Sequence record: JX128259
Direction: 5' to 3' (one strand)
DNA from: Escherichia phage ECML-134
Length of the DNA stretch: 64,000 nucleotides
Position numbers and translations under genes: made by a program. Below are positions 26,856 to 49,505 of this stretch, one piece after another. The notes beneath the pieces are model-generated. The model was given only the letters and a program-made list of their open reading frames with translations. It ran no database searches and was not told the DNA's origin. Within the stretch, counting starts at the first letter, position 1. Each line of letters starts with the position of its first letter.

Positions 26856-27042
26856 AATAATCTATTGGTAAGAGAGTACGATATATTTCAAACTTTGGAC
26901 CTTTTTCATAGGCATCAAATGTTTCTGTGAATTTATTATAAGCATATGCATCTATAAATTCAATCATGATTTGTGATACAGAAGTAGAAACATCTCCACC
27001 TTCTTTTTGAGCCACGACAATTGTTTCTAAGTAAGCTTTCAT
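26854..27042 (-). CDS. Small protein between gene 30 and alt
   Basis: 62 aa ORF whose start overlaps the gene 30 stop. Confidence 0.6.
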   Translation of the reverse strand: MKAYLETIVVAQKEGGDVSTSVSQIMIEFIDAYAYNKFTETFDAYEKGPKFEIYRTLLPIDY

Positions 27043-28502
27043 AAACCAGTTACCTCATGAAAATTACCAAATACATCCTCGAATGTATTAGCTTTAGTTT
27101 TATCTTCACGCAAACGAATCGCAATCGGAAGAAATAATTTAACGTAATCAGTGCGGCCATCAGATTTTAACCAACCGTTGCATTCGCACTCTAGAATTTT
27201 TCCAATATAATAATTTTGGTTTTCCATAATGCGAGTACGGTCAAGTTCATGCGATTTTACACCGGCTTTATCTTTTAAGCCTGAACCAGCATTTACTTTA
27301 ATTTTTCCACACTCTGACTCAAGAATAAATCCACCTGCTTTAGTAGGGTCTTTACGGTGAGGATAAATTCCTACAATTTTTAAATCAACATCAATTACTT
27401 CTTTAAATTTATAGAGATTTTTTGAACGAGCATTTTCCCATAATCCATCGATATTTTTGAGAATAATACCTTCAAGACCTTGGTCAATATACTTTTTATA
27501 AATTACCTTAGCTTCATCTAGGTTATTTACTATCTGGTTTTCAATTAAAATTACTTTATCATAGCCTGATGTCATTTGTTCTAGTTTAGAAAAACGTACA
27601 TCATATTTTAAACGAAATGCTGGAAGACCGTATATTTCTACTAATGGAACATAGTCCCAGACCTGAAACTTCATGCATTGTGCTTCTTTTTCAGAAATGG
27701 TTCCCTTTAAAGATTTATTAGCGATTCCATTAGAAGCAGTACGTGATTCAGCTACTTCGGCGAATTCTTTAGCTTTACTAATTTCAGGATAAGCATCAAA
27801 AAGAAAATCTAGGCCTTCTGGTTCCTTTTCAACTTGCTCATGGTATACCAATTCGCCATCAATTAATACACCTTCTGGATGAATCTGGCGGGCTTCAGCA
27901 GTCATTTTGATTAACTCTTCCTTAAGAAGATCTAATCCTAGATATTCATTGCCAGCTCGTGATAAAAGACGAACATCATCTAATTCATCACCTCTGACTT
28001 CGGCAAAGCACCGAGCTCCATCAGCTTTTAACTGGGCAAAGGCTGGAAATTTGATATTCTTATTAATGCCTTTTTCATCATAAGAACTTGCAAGCATTTG
28101 AGGTTGTTCAGGAATTAAACCTGGCCAAACTTTGTTCGCAATAGATACTGAAGCGCCACATTCAAGATCTCGCATCATCACTCGACGCAAAACTTCAACA
28201 TCATCTTTTTTACCATCGGTGATGTATCCAGTTAATTCCTCAATCGCCGCATTTCCAGTCAATTTCCGAGTAGCTAACGTGAATTCAATGAAGTCAAACA
28301 TATCGGTAAGAGTCAACATTCCAAAACTCTGGGTAGCAATACCAGGTTTAGGCCATTTCTTGATATAATACTGTAACCCACGAGAATAAGTCAGACGATA
28401 TACTCGTTTAAGCAATTCATTATCTTTATTCTTTTCAAGAATTGCTTGCTTCTGCTTAGTTGAACCAATAGATGCTATTTCGTTCAGAATTTTAAGAATC
28501 AT
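27039..28502 (-). CDS. 30: ATP-dependent DNA ligase gp30
   Basis: 487 aa; adenylation motif KADGAR; matches recalled T4 DNA ligase N-terminus. Confidence 0.96.
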   Translation of the reverse strand: MILKILNEIASIGSTKQKQAILEKNKDNELLKRVYRLTYSRGLQYYIKKWPKPGIATQSFGMLTLTDMFDFIEFTLATRKLTGNAAIEELTGYITDGKKDDVEVLRRVMMRDLECGASVSIANKVWPGLIPEQPQMLASSYDEKGINKNIKFPAFAQLKADGARCFAEVRGDELDDVRLLSRAGNEYLGLDLLKEELIKMTAEARQIHPEGVLIDGELVYHEQVEKEPEGLDFLFDAYPEISKAKEFAEVAESRTASNGIANKSLKGTISEKEAQCMKFQVWDYVPLVEIYGLPAFRLKYDVRFSKLEQMTSGYDKVILIENQIVNNLDEAKVIYKKYIDQGLEGIILKNIDGLWENARSKNLYKFKEVIDVDLKIVGIYPHRKDPTKAGGFILESECGKIKVNAGSGLKDKAGVKSHELDRTRIMENQNYYIGKILECECNGWLKSDGRTDYVKLFLPIAIRLREDKTKANTFEDVFGNFHEVTGL

Positions 28503-28768
28503 TGTTCATCCTTTAGAGTTTGGTTTACAGCTCTATTATAAATCAATTCATCATTAAGCTCAGTCAAAGACCTGTGGTACGTGGTTCTAACTTTATTTCC
28601 TTGCATCCAGTGCTTGACGTAAATGAAACCTTGCTCTACACATTTTTTAAAAATTCGTTCGTCTTTTTGAGCTCGGAATTCTGGATTGCATCTAAAAAAT
28701 TGATTTACGTGACCGTAATCACGTGTAGTATTACCTTCATTTTCATAAATAGTGTGAACGACAAACAT
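28499..28768 (-). CDS. Small protein (T4 30.1 position)
   Basis: 89 aa ORF; stop overlaps the gene 30 start. Confidence 0.7.
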   Translation of the reverse strand: MFVVHTIYENEGNTTRDYGHVNQFFRCNPEFRAQKDERIFKKCVEQGFIYVKHWMQGNKVRTTYHRSLTELNDELIYNRAVNQTLKDEQ

Positions 28769-29622
28769 TAGAATGCTCCTTGGAAAATATTATCACCACT
28801 ACCACTAGTAAGTCTATTAAAATACCCTGCATCACCAGGCTTAATATAACTCCATGTATGGAATGGATGCATCTGATGTGAGTGCGTATAATATGGATGA
28901 TATGGATTATAAGGATTAAATCCAGGAGTTCTCCAGGTAGTGTTCCAACGAAAAGAATCGTTTTTAATCATCTTTTCAATTACATCTTTTATAGCTTTTT
29001 CACTATCAAAACTTTCTTTATTTTCCTTTGGTGGAAAAAGCTTATTCTCTACATCATTCCATGTATAAACTCGCTGAGCGGTTTTTGGAATACTGTCACG
29101 CTCCCCTCGAGCCATCCAATAAACAGGAACATTTAATATTTCACTTGCATGATCGCAGTGGTGAGCGAGATCGTCAATATAACAAATTACGTTATATTTC
29201 TCTTTTGCCTTTTTGAACAACTCTTCTTTTGAAGAATCATGACCACACATCAATACTTCTGAGAAGGCACCAGGAAAAAGAGCATTCAAATTAAATTGAC
29301 GATTCAGCAGAGCGTCAATAGAATCACCCAATGCTGTAACAGCTACAAAATTATAATCTTCTTTTAATTTGTTAATTACACACAGGGCATCTTTATATGG
29401 AGACAAGTAACGAATAAAATCTGAACGATTGTATTTTTCAATTAACTTGACGCCAAGTTCTTCATCACAATTAAAGAGTTTACCAGGAGAAATAAATTTC
29501 TCATCTTGGATCATTTTTAAAATATGTTCTAACGGAAGATTATATTTCTGAGCAAAATAAGGAAGGCCTGATTGCCAGCTTAAACATACTCCATCAATAT
29601 CAGTCAAAATAGTAGGCTTCAT
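28768..29622 (-). CDS. HAD-superfamily hydrolase-like protein (T4 30.2 position)
   Basis: 284 aa; N-terminal motif LTDIDGV (DxDG, HAD motif I). Confidence 0.7.
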   Translation of the reverse strand: MKPTILTDIDGVCLSWQSGLPYFAQKYNLPLEHILKMIQDEKFISPGKLFNCDEELGVKLIEKYNRSDFIRYLSPYKDALCVINKLKEDYNFVAVTALGDSIDALLNRQFNLNALFPGAFSEVLMCGHDSSKEELFKKAKEKYNVICYIDDLAHHCDHASEILNVPVYWMARGERDSIPKTAQRVYTWNDVENKLFPPKENKESFDSEKAIKDVIEKMIKNDSFRWNTTWRTPGFNPYNPYHPYYTHSHQMHPFHTWSYIKPGDAGYFNRLTSGSGDNIFQGAF

Positions 29623-30083
29623 AGAGAGTCTCTTAATAGGTTTAACACATCAATAAATTCAGCTTCGGTTAGTATTGTATCATCTTTTGTTAGACCACTA
29701 GCCATGCTGTGCTTCAAAACTTTTCCTTTTGAGGCTTGTAAGGCATCACGAAACCCCTTGTTTTGAATCGCTGCTTCAAAATATGCATTTGTATACAACT
29801 CTTTCCACGCTGGGGAGTATCTTGAAAATGGAACTCCCAGCCAGAAGAGGGTCCCACGGTCCTGAGCTCTTGCATAAGACCTTCCAGCTTGTTGGGCGGC
29901 AAGCCCGGATAACCCAAATATACGTCTTTGCTGCTCAACATTTTTCACCTTGCATCCTTGGAGGAATCCTTCGAGACCTCCAAATTGGATACCATCCATA
30001 ACAAAAGGCCATTGGGCGAAATTACTTAATGCGCATGATGGCCATCTAAAATTGCTTCTAATCTCTAACTCAGACATTTTCAA
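29619..30083 (-). CDS. YbiA/NADAR-like (DUF1768) protein (T4 30.3 position)
   Basis: 154 aa; segment ALSNFAQWPFVMDGIQFGGLEGFLQGCKV resembles the recalled E. coli YbiA core (DFSNFAAWPIKVDGKTWPTSEHYFQAQKF). Confidence 0.6.
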   Translation of the reverse strand: MKMSELEIRSNFRWPSCALSNFAQWPFVMDGIQFGGLEGFLQGCKVKNVEQQRRIFGLSGLAAQQAGRSYARAQDRGTLFWLGVPFSRYSPAWKELYTNAYFEAAIQNKGFRDALQASKGKVLKHSMASGLTKDDTILTEAEFIDVLNLLRDSL

Positions 30084-30767: not shown

Positions 30768-30783
30768 TCAGTAAGGGGCCGAA
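30768..30783 (-). terminator. Hairpin (AGGGGC-cgaa-GCCCCT) between 30.6 and 30.5 positions
   Basis: Perfect 6-bp GC stem with tetraloop. Confidence 0.45.
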
Positions 30784-30798
30784 GCCCCTCATTTTATT

Positions 30799-31164: not shown

Positions 31165-31232
31165 TTTTATTCTCCGTGATGTTTAATTGCGGTACAGGTA
31201 TATAATATCATATCCTGTACCAAAGTAAACAA

Positions 31233-34390: not shown

Positions 34391-34626
34391 AGTACGCCAT
34401 ACACCCTTTGTGCTTCAACTAATCCATCAAAATCCAGTTTAAGATGCGATATTTGATCGCCATCACCTGGATTCACAATTACTAATACTGAACGAGGAGT
34501 TTCGGTAATAACACGAACCGATGTTTCAGGAAATCGTTCAGAAACCTTATTTACTAATTCCTGTGCAAATAGTTTAACTTTTTCTTGGAATTCTTTAACA
34601 GTAATTGGTTTTTCACTTAGCAGCAT
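34387..34626 (-). CDS. Small protein (cd.2 position)
   Basis: 79 aa ORF. Confidence 0.65.
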   Translation of the reverse strand: MLLSEKPITVKEFQEKVKLFAQELVNKVSERFPETSVRVITETPRSVLVIVNPGDGDQISHLKLDFDGLVEAQRVYGVL

Positions 34627-35147
34627 GTTGATCCCAGCTCCTTACTTTCAACGTTTTTAACTAATTTGACAGAAACTAATTCAGCATCTTGAGTAATCAT
34701 TACCGGACCTTCTTCATACTCTTCAAGATATTCTAGTGCTTTCTTTTTAGCTTCTTCCTTCGTATCAGTTTGAGCATAGATATAAAACATACAACCAGTA
34801 ATACCTACTACTTTCCACTTAATTTCTTTATCAGTTTTAATTTCAAATTTACTGACAGAATCATCTTTTTGAACTTCTTCGAAAAAAGAATATTCTAACA
34901 TATAAGCAATTGAAAATAGCGGGCTAACTTTATAGGATTCTCCCATTACATCAACAGCTTTATACCAGCAGTCATCAATTTCGCGTTTAATGCTAATAAC
35001 ATTTTTCGCAGGATCTATTTTTACTTTAAATGAATTTTCCCCAATAAACTGGGCAATTCGTTTATTAGCCCCGCAAGTTTCATTAAAAATATCTTTATAC
35101 CCAGTTTTAAAGCGATAAACCTTATCTTCTTCAAACCATTCGCTCAT
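34617..35147 (-). CDS. Protein at cd.3 position
   Basis: 176 aa ORF. Confidence 0.7.
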   Translation of the reverse strand: MSEWFEEDKVYRFKTGYKDIFNETCGANKRIAQFIGENSFKVKIDPAKNVISIKREIDDCWYKAVDVMGESYKVSPLFSIAYMLEYSFFEEVQKDDSVSKFEIKTDKEIKWKVVGITGCMFYIYAQTDTKEEAKKKALEYLEEYEEGPVMITQDAELVSVKLVKNVESKELGSTCC

Positions 35148-35689: not shown

Positions 35690-37082
<1,393 letters not shown>

Positions 37083-37086
<4 letters not shown>

Positions 37087-40132: not shown

Positions 40133-41311
40133 TTAAAAGTATTTTTTAAAACTCATCATAACTTTATCATCAACATCATTATCAATCTGTGCTACAAGGT
40201 AAGATGACAGTTCTACTTCTTGCGGCGCGGATTGAACATTATCAGAATTAAGGTATTCACGAATCCAAGGATATGGATGTTTAACCGGAGCATCGGTAAT
40301 TGGGCATGGAAGACCACACTGTTTCATACGAGATACAGTTAAGTAATCAATAAAGCTCCACATGCTATTTGTATTTAATCCAGGAACATCGCCATCTTTA
40401 AATAAATGAACTGCCCAATCTTTTTCTTGGCGGTTAACTTCCATGAAAATATCAACTGCTTCTTGTTCACACTCTTGAGCAATTTTAACCCATTCATCGC
40501 CATCAGTGCCAAGTTGAAGTTGACGAATAATATATTGAGTGCCTTTAAGGTGAAGCTGCTCATCACGTGCAATAAACTTCATAATCTTGGCATTACCTTC
40601 CATGATTTCCATGTTCTTATGGAAGTTAAAGGTACATGCAAAAGATACATAAAAACGAATAGCTTCTAAGGCATTAATAACGTGTAAACAGAGGTAAAGA
40701 GACTTCATTAAAGCGCGTTTAGCTTCGGCTTCTTGCTTAATAGCTCGGTTTAAACGAAAGTCGGCATCAGGAGATTCTTTAGCTAGTTCTACAAATTCTT
40801 TAGCATTTTCCCATTCACGGGTTTTAATCAGAACATCATCATAATAGCGACCGATAGATTCAGCACGTTTCATGATAGCTTCATCTAATACAATCTCATC
40901 AAATACCTTTGACGGATCAGTATAAAGATTTCGCATGATATGAGTATATGAACGACTGTGAATAGTTTCACTAAAAGTCCATGTAGCAACCCATGTATCA
41001 AGGCTTGGGTCTGAAATTAATGACATAAGTACAGCAGACGGCGCACGGCCCTGAATGCTATCCAAAAGTGATTGATACTTCAGGTTGTTAGTAAAAATAT
41101 TTTGCTGATACTGAGGAAGCTTATTAAACTGTGCAGCATCCATCATTAAGTTTACTTCTTCCGGGCGCCAGAAAAATGACAATTGCTTTTCGGTCAAATC
41201 TTCAAAAACTTTATGGCGTTGAATATCATAACGCGCAATACCAAGACCTGAACCAAAAAACATAGGTTCTTTTAAAACATCAACTGGATTTGTGTTAAAA
41301 ATTGTGCTCAT
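40133..41311 (-). CDS. nrdB: Ribonucleotide reductase small subunit, uninterrupted (no intron)
   Basis: Continuous 392 aa ORF. Confidence 0.93.
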   Translation of the reverse strand: MSTIFNTNPVDVLKEPMFFGSGLGIARYDIQRHKVFEDLTEKQLSFFWRPEEVNLMMDAAQFNKLPQYQQNIFTNNLKYQSLLDSIQGRAPSAVLMSLISDPSLDTWVATWTFSETIHSRSYTHIMRNLYTDPSKVFDEIVLDEAIMKRAESIGRYYDDVLIKTREWENAKEFVELAKESPDADFRLNRAIKQEAEAKRALMKSLYLCLHVINALEAIRFYVSFACTFNFHKNMEIMEGNAKIMKFIARDEQLHLKGTQYIIRQLQLGTDGDEWVKIAQECEQEAVDIFMEVNRQEKDWAVHLFKDGDVPGLNTNSMWSFIDYLTVSRMKQCGLPCPITDAPVKHPYPWIREYLNSDNVQSAPQEVELSSYLVAQIDNDVDDKVMMSFKKYF

Positions 41312-41362
41312 AAATTTTCCGCTTAGTTAATAGTTGGTGACTCGTCCGTGAGTCAAATTATA

Positions 41363-43627
41363 TCATAATTTACAGGATGAACAATCTTCAGCTTTTGGAG
41401 TTTCTATTTCATAATCATCAGTACCAGAACCATCACGGGTATTATGATAATAGAAATTTTTTCCGCCAAAATACCAGAAATACAAAAGGTCATCAATCAT
41501 TATTGACATTGGAACCTTTCCTTTTGGAAAAATCTGCGGGTCATAGTATGTATTCGCTGAAGCTGATTGACATACCCATTTCAGCATAATAGCTACTTGC
41601 GTAAGATAAGGTTTATTACCTTTCTTAGCTAATTTCCATGTATAATCATATAGGTCTATGTTATGCTCAATATTGGGCACGACTTGATTAAAGGAGCCCT
41701 CTTTTGATTCTTTAACAGAGACTGGTCCACGTGGAGGCTCGATACCGTTTGTACTGTTAGAAACTTGGGAAGATGACTCACATGGCATAAGTGCTGATAA
41801 TGTGCTATTACGGATGCCAAAGAGCTTAAGGTCTTCCCGCAGCGACGACCAGTCACAAACGTATTTTGGAGCTGCGATTTGGTCAATCTTTTTATTGTAC
41901 CAGTCGATAGGTAATTCGCCTCGAGACCAACGAGTGTCTGAATAATATTCGCAAGGTCCTTTTTCTTTGGCGAGATTAATGGATGCTTTAATGAGTCCAT
42001 ACTGTAATCTCTCAAATAGTTCATGTGTTAAATCGTTAGCATCTTCATAAGAAGCAAAGTTACTTGCCAGCCAAGCTGCATAGTTGGTAACACCTACACC
42101 AAGGTTACGACGCTTTTTAGCTTTTTCTGCTTCAGGAACTGGATATCCTTGGTAATCCAAAAGATTATCAAGAGCACGAACTTGAACTTCTGCCAATTCA
42201 TTAATTTTATCTTGGTCTTGCCAATCAAAATTATCTAGTACGAATGCAGAGAGAGTACACAATCCAATTTCAGCATCAGGACTATTCACATCATTTGTTG
42301 GAATAGCAATTTCACAGCACAAGTTACTCTGACGAATAGGTGCCTTTTCACGAATAAACGGAGTATAGTTATTCGTATTATCAATGAACTGTACATAAAT
42401 CCTTGCTGTTCCTGAACGTTCAGTCATGAGCAATTCAAATAGTTCACGGGCTTTAATACGCTTTTTACGAATATTAGGATCTTTTTCTGCTGCTTCGTAT
42501 AATTCACGGAAACGGTCTTGGTCTTTAAAATAAGAATAATAAAGCTCGCCACCCATTTCATGCGGACTGAACAAAGTAATGTAATCGTTCTTTCCAAAAC
42601 GTTCCATCATCAAATCATTCAGCTGAACACCATAATCCATATGACGAATGCGGTTTTCTTCTACGCCTTTGTTATTTTTCAAAACGAGAAGATTTTCAAC
42701 TTCCAAATGCCAAATAGGATAATAAGCAGTAGCAGCGCCGCCACGAATTCCACCCTGTGAACATGATTTAACTGCAGTCTGAAAATGTTTCCAAAAAGGA
42801 ATAACACCAGTATGACGTACTTCACCCATGCCAATCTTAGAACCTTCAGCACGAATCATACCAACGTTAATACCAATTCCAGCGCGTTTAGAGATATATT
42901 CAACAATTGAAGCGGAAGCCTTATTGATAGACTTCAGCGAATCACCTGCCTCAATAACAACGCATGAACTGAACTGTCGAGTCGGAGTACGACAACCAGC
43001 CATAATAGGAGTTGGCAATGAAATCTGTCGAGTAGATACTGCTTCATAAAAACGAATAACATGTTTTAATCTATCAACAGGTTCATCTTGATGCAATGCC
43101 ATTCCAATAGTCATAAATGCAAACTGTGGAGTTTCATAAATTTGACCAGTGGTTTTATCTTTAACTAAATATTTTTCTTTTAATTGCATCGCCCCGGAAT
43201 AAGTAAATTCCATATCCCGTTCGTGCTTAATTTTTGATTCTAAAAATGTAATTTCTTCTGCTGAATATTTTGACAACAATTCAGGGTCATATTTACCTGC
43301 ATTTACACAATAAGAAATATGGTCAATAAATGAACGTGGTTCATACTGCCCATAAACATGCTTACGAAGAGCGAACATTAAACAGCGTGCAGCTACATAT
43401 TGATAATCAGGCTCTTCAACCGAAATAGAATTCGCAGCGGCCTTAATGACAATAGTCTGAATATCATCAGTTGTCATTCCATCACGGAGATATGATTTAA
43501 TATTTTCATATAATTCATAAGGATCTACTGATGTTCCCTCAGCTGCCCAAGATAAAACTTTAATAATTTTTTGCGGGTCAAAGCTCTGAGAAACACCACT
43601 ACTTTTGATAACATTAATTAATTGCAT
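41363..43627 (-). CDS. nrdA: Ribonucleotide reductase large subunit
   Basis: 754 aa, matches T4 NrdA length; only ~50 nt separate it from nrdB. Confidence 0.96.
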   Translation of the reverse strand: MQLINVIKSSGVSQSFDPQKIIKVLSWAAEGTSVDPYELYENIKSYLRDGMTTDDIQTIVIKAAANSISVEEPDYQYVAARCLMFALRKHVYGQYEPRSFIDHISYCVNAGKYDPELLSKYSAEEITFLESKIKHERDMEFTYSGAMQLKEKYLVKDKTTGQIYETPQFAFMTIGMALHQDEPVDRLKHVIRFYEAVSTRQISLPTPIMAGCRTPTRQFSSCVVIEAGDSLKSINKASASIVEYISKRAGIGINVGMIRAEGSKIGMGEVRHTGVIPFWKHFQTAVKSCSQGGIRGGAATAYYPIWHLEVENLLVLKNNKGVEENRIRHMDYGVQLNDLMMERFGKNDYITLFSPHEMGGELYYSYFKDQDRFRELYEAAEKDPNIRKKRIKARELFELLMTERSGTARIYVQFIDNTNNYTPFIREKAPIRQSNLCCEIAIPTNDVNSPDAEIGLCTLSAFVLDNFDWQDQDKINELAEVQVRALDNLLDYQGYPVPEAEKAKKRRNLGVGVTNYAAWLASNFASYEDANDLTHELFERLQYGLIKASINLAKEKGPCEYYSDTRWSRGELPIDWYNKKIDQIAAPKYVCDWSSLREDLKLFGIRNSTLSALMPCESSSQVSNSTNGIEPPRGPVSVKESKEGSFNQVVPNIEHNIDLYDYTWKLAKKGNKPYLTQVAIMLKWVCQSASANTYYDPQIFPKGKVPMSIMIDDLLYFWYFGGKNFYYHNTRDGSGTDDYEIETPKAEDCSSCKL

Positions 43628-44496: not shown

Positions 44497-45512
44497 CATT
44501 ATGTTCAGATAAGGTCGTTAATCTTACCCCGGAATTATATCCAGCTGCATGTCACCATGCAGAGCAGACTATATCTCCAACTTGTTAAAGCAAGTTGTCT
44601 ATCGTTTCGAGTCACTTGACCCTACTCCCCAAAGGGATAGTCGTTAGGCATTTATGTAGAACCAATTCCATTTATCAGATTTTACACGATAAGTAACTAA
44701 TCCAGACGAAATTTTAAAATGTCTAGCTGCATCTGCTGCACATTCAAAAATAACCCCATCACATGAAATCTTTTTAATATTACTAGGCTTTTTACCTTTC
44801 ATCTTTTCTGATATTTTAGATTTAGTTATGTCTGAATGCTTATGATTAAAGAATGAATTATTTTCACCTGAACGATTTCTGCATTTACTACAAGTATAAG
44901 CAGAAGTTTGTATGCGAACACCACACTTACAAAACTTATGGGTTTCTGGATTCCAACGCCCATTTTCACTTCCATATTTACCATAAAGAGCTTTTCGGCC
45001 TTTTACGCCGAGTTTAAGCATATTTACTTTAACAGTTTCAGAGCGTTTCTTGATAATTTCTTCTTTTAATGGATGTGTAGAACATGTATCACCAAACGTT
45101 GCATCAGCAATATTGTATCCATTAATTTTAGAATTAAGCTCTTTAATCCAAAAATTTTCTCGTTCAATAATCAAATCTTTCTCATATGGAATTTCTTCCA
45201 AAATAGAACATTCAAACACATTACCATGTTTGTTAAAAGACCTCTGAAGTTTTATAGAAGAATGGCATCCTTTTTCTAAATCTTTAAAATGCCTCTTCCA
45301 TCTCTTTTCAAAATCTTTAGCACTTCCTACATATACTTTATTGTTTAAAGTATTTTTAATCTGATAAATTCCACTTTTCATAAATACCTCTTTAAATATA
45401 GAAGTATTTATTAAAGGGCAGTCCTACAATTTAGCACGGGATTGTCTACTAGAGAGGTTCCCCGTTTAGATAGATTACAAGTATAAGTCACCTTATACTC
45501 AGGCCTCAATTA
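44497..45512 (-). mobile_element. Group I self-splicing intron in td (1016 nt) carrying I-TevI
   Basis: Intron 5' end TAATTGAGGCCTGAGTATAAGGTGACTTATACTTGTAATCTATC matches the recalled T4 td intron; length 1016 nt; exons sum to 286 codons. Confidence 0.92.
44644..45381 (-). CDS. I-TevI: I-TevI GIY-YIG intron homing endonuclease
   Basis: 245 aa inside the td intron; GIY-YIG motif GIYQIKNTLNNKVYVGSA and C-terminal zinc-finger/DNA-binding region. Confidence 0.95.
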   Translation of the reverse strand: MKSGIYQIKNTLNNKVYVGSAKDFEKRWKRHFKDLEKGCHSSIKLQRSFNKHGNVFECSILEEIPYEKDLIIERENFWIKELNSKINGYNIADATFGDTCSTHPLKEEIIKKRSETVKVNMLKLGVKGRKALYGKYGSENGRWNPETHKFCKCGVRIQTSAYTCSKCRNRSGENNSFFNHKHSDITKSKISEKMKGKKPSNIKKISCDGVIFECAADAARHFKISSGLVTYRVKSDKWNWFYINA

Positions 45513-46106: not shown

Positions 46107-46454
46107 TCAATACGGTTTAGCATCAAATTTTCTCTCAATTTCAGGCGTGAAATATAATTCTTTACCGCGTTTGGAAAAGCGACCAATAATATGATAATTA
46201 TTCTCATCAAACGTAATATTACCAATATCCATAGCTTTCAACCAAATATCGATATTTCTATCCAGCTTTATGTCAAAATTCCAATACGGAGAACTATTAC
46301 CGAAAATACTGCAAGCAGATTCAGTGAAACAACTGCTATAAATCTTGTCTTTAGGAACTACTAATTGATAGACACCTTTAATAAACTGAGGACCCTGCCA
46401 TTTAGGTTGTTTCACGTCTTTTTCTAATAGAATAGGGTAATAATTAAAATTCAT
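46107..46454 (-). CDS. Hypothetical protein encoded between frd and td
   Basis: ORF with GTG at 46466 or ATG at 46454 (MNFNYYPILLEK...), about 115 codons; no motif I recognise. Confidence 0.6.
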   Translation of the reverse strand: MNFNYYPILLEKDVKQPKWQGPQFIKGVYQLVVPKDKIYSSCFTESACSIFGNSSPYWNFDIKLDRNIDIWLKAMDIGNITFDENNYHIIGRFSKRGKELYFTPEIERKFDAKPY

Positions 46455-46474
46455 ATTTTCCGCCACGCGTTATT

Positions 46475-47301
<827 letters not shown>

Positions 47302-49406: not shown

Positions 49407-49500
49407 TTTTATTTCCTTTTTAATTTAATTAACAGTTGGTGCTATGACGATGTATGACCTCATAGCTGGTCAGTGAGATAATTATAATCTATTTATAATA
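49407..49500 (-). promoter_or_regulatory. Gene 32 leader: late promoter (TATAAATA on -, 49490-49497) and AU-rich 5'UTR, likely the autoregulatory translational operator
   Basis: TATAAATA on the - strand, then a structured segment, then the AU-rich tract TTAATTAAATTAAAAAGGAAATAAAA before the ATG. Confidence 0.55.
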
Positions 49501-49505
49501 AGCAA

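Follow-up and report, generated by a model that had tools for sequence, protein, structure and literature searches.

What does the small minus-strand reading frame beside the DNA ligase gene of Escherichia phage ECML-134 encode, and could its product protect the phage against a host defence that ADP-ribosylates DNA? We addressed this question in the window, that is, the whole 64,000-nucleotide stretch of record JX128259 that was analysed. An earlier note, made from the letters alone, had described a 154-aa product with the core ALSNFAQWPFVMDGIQFGGLEGFLQGCKV, and the ORF listing indeed contains both, in a minus-strand ORF at 29619..30083 that opens with TTG.

Gene identity and genomic setting

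The reading frame and the stop of this ORF hold, while its start probably does not: the ATG at 30077, two codons downstream of the TTG, is the likelier start and gives a product of 152 aa. The T4 annotation gives gene 30.3 as a 459-nt CDS whose ATG is the counterpart of window position 30077, and a start at this position overlaps the stop of gene 30.4. We therefore took 29619..30077 (minus strand, 152 codons and a TGA stop), with the length and ends of T4 30.3, as the CDS of the 30.3 ortholog, adfN. The ATG start also reproduces the published residue numbers E36 and K43. The extra codons TTG AAA (30078..30083, minus strand) lie inside the 3' end of gene 30.4; they come from the longest-ORF listing and are probably an artefact of it, not translated as part of AdfN.

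The adfN ATG and the gene 30.4 TGA overlap at 30070..30077 (minus strand, ATGTCTGA), and the adfN stop and the gene 30.2 start share an ATGA at 29619..29622 (minus strand), an arrangement that is also annotated in T4. Reading of the sequence by eye gave no strong Shine-Dalgarno sequence upstream of the adfN ATG. The start/stop overlap with 30.4 suggests translational coupling of the two genes.

AdfN is identical to T4 gp30.3 in 151 of 152 residues (99%), the sole change being Ile125 to Met. Methionine is the family consensus at this position and is also found in RB69. Proteins exactly identical to this AdfN are encoded by phages teqskov and JEP6. Its sequence identifies the gene as adfN (T4 gene 30.3), carried by a Tequatrovirus that is a close relative of T4.

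The surroundings of the gene agree in detail with T4. The source is a Tequatrovirus, a T4 relative, and the best DNA matches are Tequatroviruses that are about 98% identical. Matches to the 465-nt stretch occur in 694 phage records (80-98% identity), the 6 kb around adfN are about 97-98% identical to many T4-like coliphages, and adfN with its flanks shares 98% DNA identity with T4. The minus-strand order is DNA ligase (27039..28502), 30.1 (DUF3045), 30.2, adfN, 30.4, 30.5, 30.6, 30.7 and 30.8, as in T4. Placement of the ORF in the 30.x cluster, as the earlier note had proposed, is thus borne out by the position of adfN between 30.4 and 30.2 beside the ligase gene. The neighbours of adfN are these two genes, and no ADP-ribosyltransferase or darT gene adjoins it.

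A scan for promoters and terminators found 24 sites, compared to 20.4 +/- 5.1 in shuffled sequence. Since this is no excess over the shuffled expectation, we make no promoter claim for adfN, nor one of early timing. We note a GC-rich hairpin, AGGGGC-CGAA-GCCCCT, at 30774..30789, as a candidate only; it lies between 30.7 and 30.6, where the 30.x block has its one intergenic gap of notable size. Upstream of 30.7, at 31229..31202, there are candidate hexamers resembling T4 early promoters, GTTTAC...TATTAT; all sites taken together, the scan stayed at the shuffled level.

Comparison of adfN with its T4 counterpart showed 23 nucleotide differences in 22 codons. In 21 of these codons the changes were synonymous and in one non-synonymous, with dS of about 0.25 and dN of about 0.006. 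The predominance of synonymous changes and the low dN relative to dS indicate that adfN is functional and under strong purifying selection. The frame 30.3' that is annotated in T4 (75 codons in the +1 frame within adfN) is also open here (29714..29941, minus strand), and its product differs from that of T4 in 15 of 75 residues. All nucleotide differences inside 30.3' are non-synonymous in its own frame (0 synonymous) and synonymous in the adfN frame, and the codon comparison with T4 gave no indication that a 30.3' protein is under selection.

The part of the window that was mapped onto T4 runs collinear with about 124.8-152 kb there, a stretch that contains neither adfA/61.2 nor adfM/tk.4. Three elements of T4 are absent from the window: the nrdB group I intron with I-TevIII, the nrdB.1 and mobE segment between nrdB and nrdA, and, from between genes 32 and 59, the homing-endonuclease gene segG (sites 40635..40638, 41311..41367 and 49469..49505). 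The td region is collinear with T4, including a 245-aa ORF of I-TevI size at 44644..45381. Four small minus-strand ORFs have no T4 counterpart: 34617..35147 (176 aa) in the cd.2/cd.3 segment, 36784..37086 (100 aa) in the pseT/pseT.1 segment, 46107..46466 (119 aa) in the td/frd segment, and 47056..47301 (81 aa) in the frd/frd.1 segment. They represent the typical accessory-gene mosaicism of T-even phages.

Family, fold and functional residues

AdfN matched Pfam PF08010 (Phage_30_3) over model positions 1-138 of 138, scoring 235 bits where the cut-off is 36 (E=2e-70). Pfam PF08719 (NADAR/DUF1768) was not matched by AdfN at the gathering threshold; three of ten AdfN relatives matched it weakly, with a best E of 0.0031. 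Divergence accounts for the missed match, which leaves the fold and profile evidence given below standing; Pfam treats the phage clade as a family of its own. Because there is no direct PF08719 score, membership in the NADAR superfamily is based on fold and profile-profile evidence. A search of NCBIfam with AdfN returned no family. AdfN also matched PHROG 652 (phrog_652), which is labelled 'unknown function'. Of the 296 positions in the phrog_652 profile, AdfN covers only 126-272; some members of the cluster may be longer or fused relatives, or a neighbouring gene may have been merged into it.

No significant match came from direct sequence searches, so that profile and fold methods were needed. 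A match of PDB entry 3rjz to the single AdfN sequence (E=0.61) was set aside as chance. A family profile of 13 homologs, reaching down to 31% identity, was aligned by hhalign to residues 28-123 of E. coli YbiA with a probability of 87% (E=4.1e-6, 95 aligned columns). In hmmsearch runs of family profiles against the PDB, YbiA was the top and only match (E=0.055 and 0.15), spanning the motif SNFAxWP...E..xQ..K, which is suggestive and, taken alone, insufficient. An AlphaFold2 model of AdfN was built from the alignment (pLDDT 84.4, pTM 0.82). Fold comparison placed it in the NADAR fold and nowhere else, with E. coli YbiA as the best structural match. The resemblance to YbiA/DUF1768 that the earlier note had pointed out is thus real, and the predicted NADAR fold stands independently of the literature.

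Fold, profile and residues place AdfN in the AdfN-T4 clade (PF08010) and in the NADAR superfamily. Within the superfamily it falls in the His-variant clade of phage NADARs, whose nearest kin are DarG1-type antitoxins, and outside the YbiA subfamily proper. A phage clade was already present in the NADAR classification of De Souza and Aravind, as cited in PMC11543638.

Three residues deserve particular attention. Glu36 (GAA, 29970..29972, minus strand) is the catalytic, ADP-ribose-contacting residue, is invariant in 13 of 13 homologs down to 31% identity, and aligns with the YbiA Glu in SEHYFQAQK. Together with the phosphate-coordinating Lys43 (AAG, 29949..29951, minus strand; kept in 12 of 13 homologs), it forms an E-x6-K motif that aligns to the E...K motif of YbiA. 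Both E36A and K43A impair AdfN-T4 (PMC11825919). Lys43 has equivalents in K95 of the E. coli C7 NADAR and K50 of PnNADAR, and Schuller et al. found the Glu and Lys equivalents to be needed for guanine-ADPr hydrolysis (PMC11543638). The third residue, His123 (CAC, 29709..29711, minus strand), is again invariant in 13 of 13 homologs and is the clade signature that replaces the Glu or Asp of other NADARs. One site distinguishes the groups, being Glu in YbiA-type proteins, Asp in DarT1-associated NADARs and His in phage NADARs (PMC11543638); position 123 would be this site, judging from the LxH motif.

In the homolog of Acinetobacter phage Acj61 (L003, 3001..3474), Arg is found instead of the catalytic Lys43. 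A K-to-R exchange in the E. coli C7 NADAR preserved in vitro activity and abolished antitoxin function (PMC11543638), so that the Arg of Acj61 may mark altered efficiency or specificity.

The C-terminal alpha-helix (codons 138-152, 29622..29666, minus strand) comprises residues 138-151 in the model and is identical to that of T4. This helix is needed for full activity, and its truncation impaired the protein (PMC11825919). In the RB69 allele, which served as a control, an extra T yields ACT-TGA, a stop after Thr137 that costs the protein 15 residues, in agreement with the published report (PMC11825919). The RB69 +T frameshift is missing from the window, which carries the T4-type sequence with an intact C-terminal helix.

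AdfN-T4-type homologs with 31-40% identity also occur outside the Straboviridae, namely in the Ackermannviridae-classified Ralstonia phage RSP15 (L004, 2995..3513), where the gene is embedded in a tRNA gene cluster, and in Rhizobium and Desulfovibrio phages. The AdfN-T4 clade is therefore wider than the coliphages of the 'T4 superfamily'. In the about 1,500 phage records with a homolog, nearly all are labelled 'hypothetical protein' and only one 'YbiA-like'; a few carry the unrelated names 'DprA-like', 'putative baseplate hub' or 'homing endonuclease'. Annotation of these homologs lags the literature of 2023-2025 and could be updated.

Guanine-linked ADP-ribose as the probable substrate, and alternatives

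The activity of the T4 protein has been described in the literature. Cihlova et al. (2024) reported that T4-type gp30.3 hydrolyses guanosine-ADPr, not thymidine-ADPr, in vitro, and that it cleaves in vitro the guanine-ADPr made by the unrelated transferase ScARP (PMC11125620). With chimeras from T2/T4 x RB69, Johannesman et al. (2025, Nat Commun 16:1598) traced resistance to DarTG1 to 30.3, which they gave the new name adfN (PMC11825919). Deletion of adfN makes T4 and T2 sensitive to DarTG1, ectopic expression rescues RB69, and purified wild-type AdfN, but not E36A, strips ADP-ribose from DarT1-modified DNA, while AdfN-T4 is without effect on DarTG2 (PMC11825919). In an independent transposon-sequencing (HIDEN-SEQ) preprint, insertions in 30.3/adfN were lost only on DarTG1 hosts (bioRxiv 10.1101/2025.11.20.689424).

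These publications on T4 gp30.3, to which the protein in the window is 99% identical, narrow the earlier proposal of an ADP-ribose-removing enzyme against DarT. It stands for guanine-linked ADP-ribose and DarT1/DarTG1, and falls for DarT2/DarTG2, which modifies thymidine. Because the activity is specific for guanine-linked ADP-ribose, AdfN counters DarT1/DarTG1 and not DarT2/DarTG2. A fold comparison, rescue in a DarTG-carrying host and removal of ADP-ribose in vitro had been suggested as tests, and all three have already been confirmed in the literature for a protein that differs by one residue. Function, mechanism and phenotype are known from the T4 protein and are not a new finding; the assignment carries little weight as a discovery, and a motif resemblance had led the earlier note to it correctly.

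We consider it very probable that AdfN is a free-standing NADAR-fold DNA ADP-ribosylglycohydrolase that defeats DarTG1 by hydrolysis of guanine-ADP-ribose. In a DarTG1 host, DarT1 would ADP-ribosylate guanines in single-stranded phage DNA and thereby block replication. AdfN would hydrolyse the guanine-ADP-ribose bond and free ADP-ribose. Glu36 would engage the distal ribose and Lys43 the phosphates, and His123, which is particular to the clade, would take part as well. Removal of the lesion would give back a replicable template and allow the phage to grow. In this scheme, AdfN is expected to act on the modified DNA without binding the toxin and to leave the thymidine ADP-ribosylation by DarT2 unreversed. 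The Met125 allele can be expected to behave like T4 AdfN, and the phage should resist DarTG1-type defence, unlike RB69-type phages with the frameshifted allele.

DarT1 might be one target only, with the main role of AdfN lying in the clearing of guanine-linked ADP-ribose left by other host ADP-ribosyltransferases, as raised by Johannesman et al. (PMC11825919). AdfN recognises the modified base, not the toxin, as the cleavage of the ScARP product illustrates (PMC11125620), and homologs are spread over more than 1,500 phage records, with hosts from Vibrio to Ralstonia and Desulfovibrio. However, a DarTG1-type toxin is the sole target demonstrated in vivo, and in the T4 transposon screen the gene was dispensable on K-12 without DarTG1 (bioRxiv 10.1101/2025.11.20.689424). 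We therefore consider a broader main role unlikely, while giving it some room.

If AdfN bound or sequestered DarT1 as AdfA does, the NADAR fold would be incidental. Protection independent of catalysis is conceivable, since E36A and K43A keep partial RB69 rescue (PMC11825919). Yet a two-hybrid assay showed no interaction between AdfN-T4 and DarT1, the catalytic mutants have clear defects, and wild-type protein removes ADP-ribose whereas E36A does not (PMC11825919). The retention of Glu36 and Lys43 across the distant homologs described above also speaks for catalysis, and toxin binding is very improbable as the mode of action.

Decay of this particular allele, similar to that in RB69, has precedents in the RB69 frameshift as a natural inactive allele and in several database homologs that are truncated or split. 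The gene in the window, however, has a full-length frame, departs from active T4 AdfN in just one conservative exchange towards the family consensus, and has a very low dN/dS, so that an inactive product is hardly to be expected. Finally, a YbiA-type housekeeping N-glycosidase acting on intermediates of the riboflavin pathway, and not a DNA de-ADP-ribosylase, is the least credible reading: E. coli YbiA is the best structural and only PDB sequence-profile match and is called 'N-glycosidase' by RefSeq, but an invariant His stands in for the YbiA-subfamily Glu, a published phylogeny sets the T4 clade beside DarG1-type NADARs and not YbiA (PMC11825919), and both DNA de-ADP-ribosylation and the DarTG1 phenotype are published for the 99%-identical T4 protein.

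Hydrolysis of guanine-ADP-ribose by AdfN is nevertheless not the entire account. T4-type gp30.3 fails to rescue E. coli from DarT1 without infection (PMC11125620; PMC11825919), and AdfN-T4 only weakly rescues T5 and Bas25 (PMC11825919; PMC11125620). A simple enzyme-only model is therefore incomplete, and a T-even-specific factor or context is needed for full AdfN-T4 activity. A literature search on AdfN turned up the Nat Commun paper, its preprint and the HIDEN-SEQ preprint, and among the literature searched there was no publication that names a cofactor.

Gene 30.2 (28768..29622, minus strand, 284 aa) appears to be translationally coupled to adfN through the ATGA overlap. Its product has 284 aa compared to 278 aa in T4, with 92% identity and indels in the C-terminal tail, which is rich in Pro, Tyr, His and Asn. 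In Escherichia, Acinetobacter and Klebsiella straboviruses, gp30.2 remains encoded within about 0.5 kb downstream of adfN, and the 30.2 products near adfN in Acj61 and Roth22 have about 48% identity over the first 180-195 residues. In KVP40 and the Ackermannviridae phage RSP15, 30.2 was not found within 3 kb of adfN. In the four distant phages examined, there was no 30.4 homolog near adfN and no consistently conserved partner beside it.

The first approximately 180 residues of gp30.2 contain invariant HAD-like motifs (LTDIDG, FVAVTAL, a conserved Lys, and IDDL). Pfam, PDB and profile searches with gp30.2 were negative or marginal, with one of four homologs matching a HAD model (E=0.0057), and a single-sequence AlphaFold2 model had a pLDDT of 38, too low for use. 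That the partner of AdfN-T4 is a tightly linked, translationally coupled neighbour, mainly gp30.2 with its four HAD-phosphatase motifs, is a long shot. If true, the two genes would form a two-step module, in which AdfN removes ADP-ribose and gp30.2 either acts on what is released or directs AdfN to its substrate.

Comparison with known NADAR proteins and anti-DarT factors

AdfN-T4 is the closest known system. It shares with the protein in the window its length, the overlaps with 30.4 and 30.2, the gene neighbourhood, the residues E36, K43 and H123, and the intact C-terminal helix. The differences are Ile125 in T4 in place of Met, the 23 nucleotide changes, nearly all of them synonymous, and the phage itself, which is a relative of T4.

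DarG1/DarT1-associated NADARs, represented by the Geobacter lovleyi NADAR (PDB 8bat) and the E. coli C7 NADAR, differ from the AdfN considered here, which is an orphan. The G. lovleyi NADAR has 219 aa compared to the 152 aa of AdfN, which is without the N-terminal extension (also noted in PMC11825919). The catalytic Asp of the DarT1-associated NADARs is replaced in AdfN by His, at a site taken as equivalent from the motif. DarG1-type NADARs are antitoxins, whereas T4 AdfN cannot act as an antitoxin in uninfected cells (PMC11825919; PMC11125620). With no adjoining darT, no N-terminal extension and His for Asp, AdfN does not qualify, strictly speaking, as a DarG1-type antitoxin. Chemically, it would work like DarG1.

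E. coli YbiA (PDB 2b3w; PF08719) has about 18-19% identity to AdfN. AdfN is not assigned to the YbiA subfamily because the subfamily Glu (E125 in PnNADAR numbering) is replaced by His123, an equivalence read from the motif; the hhalign alignment of the AdfN profile with YbiA ends before the His123 region. YbiA also differs in its setting, being encoded in the LexA-controlled host locus rhlE-ybiA-dinG-ybiB and linked to N-glycosidase action on riboflavin intermediates, and it gives no protection from DarT1 in cells (PMC11125620).

AdfN-Bas32 and AdfN-Bas60, from T5-like and Vequintavirinae phages, are, like AdfN-T4, phage NADARs with specificity for guanine-ADPr that undo the action of DarTG1 (PMC11825919). 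They belong to other NADAR clades, were acquired independently and, unlike AdfN-T4, neutralise DarT1 without infection and fully rescue unrelated phages (PMC11825919).

AdfM (T4 Tk.4) and AdfA (T4 61.2) are, like AdfN, anti-DarT factors of T-even phages. AdfM shares with AdfN the character of a predicted orphan antitoxin-like ADP-ribosylglycohydrolase (bioRxiv 10.1101/2025.11.20.689424), but it has a macrodomain fold and targets the thymidine modification of DarTG2. AdfA, in contrast, acts by binding DarT1 (PMC11825919).
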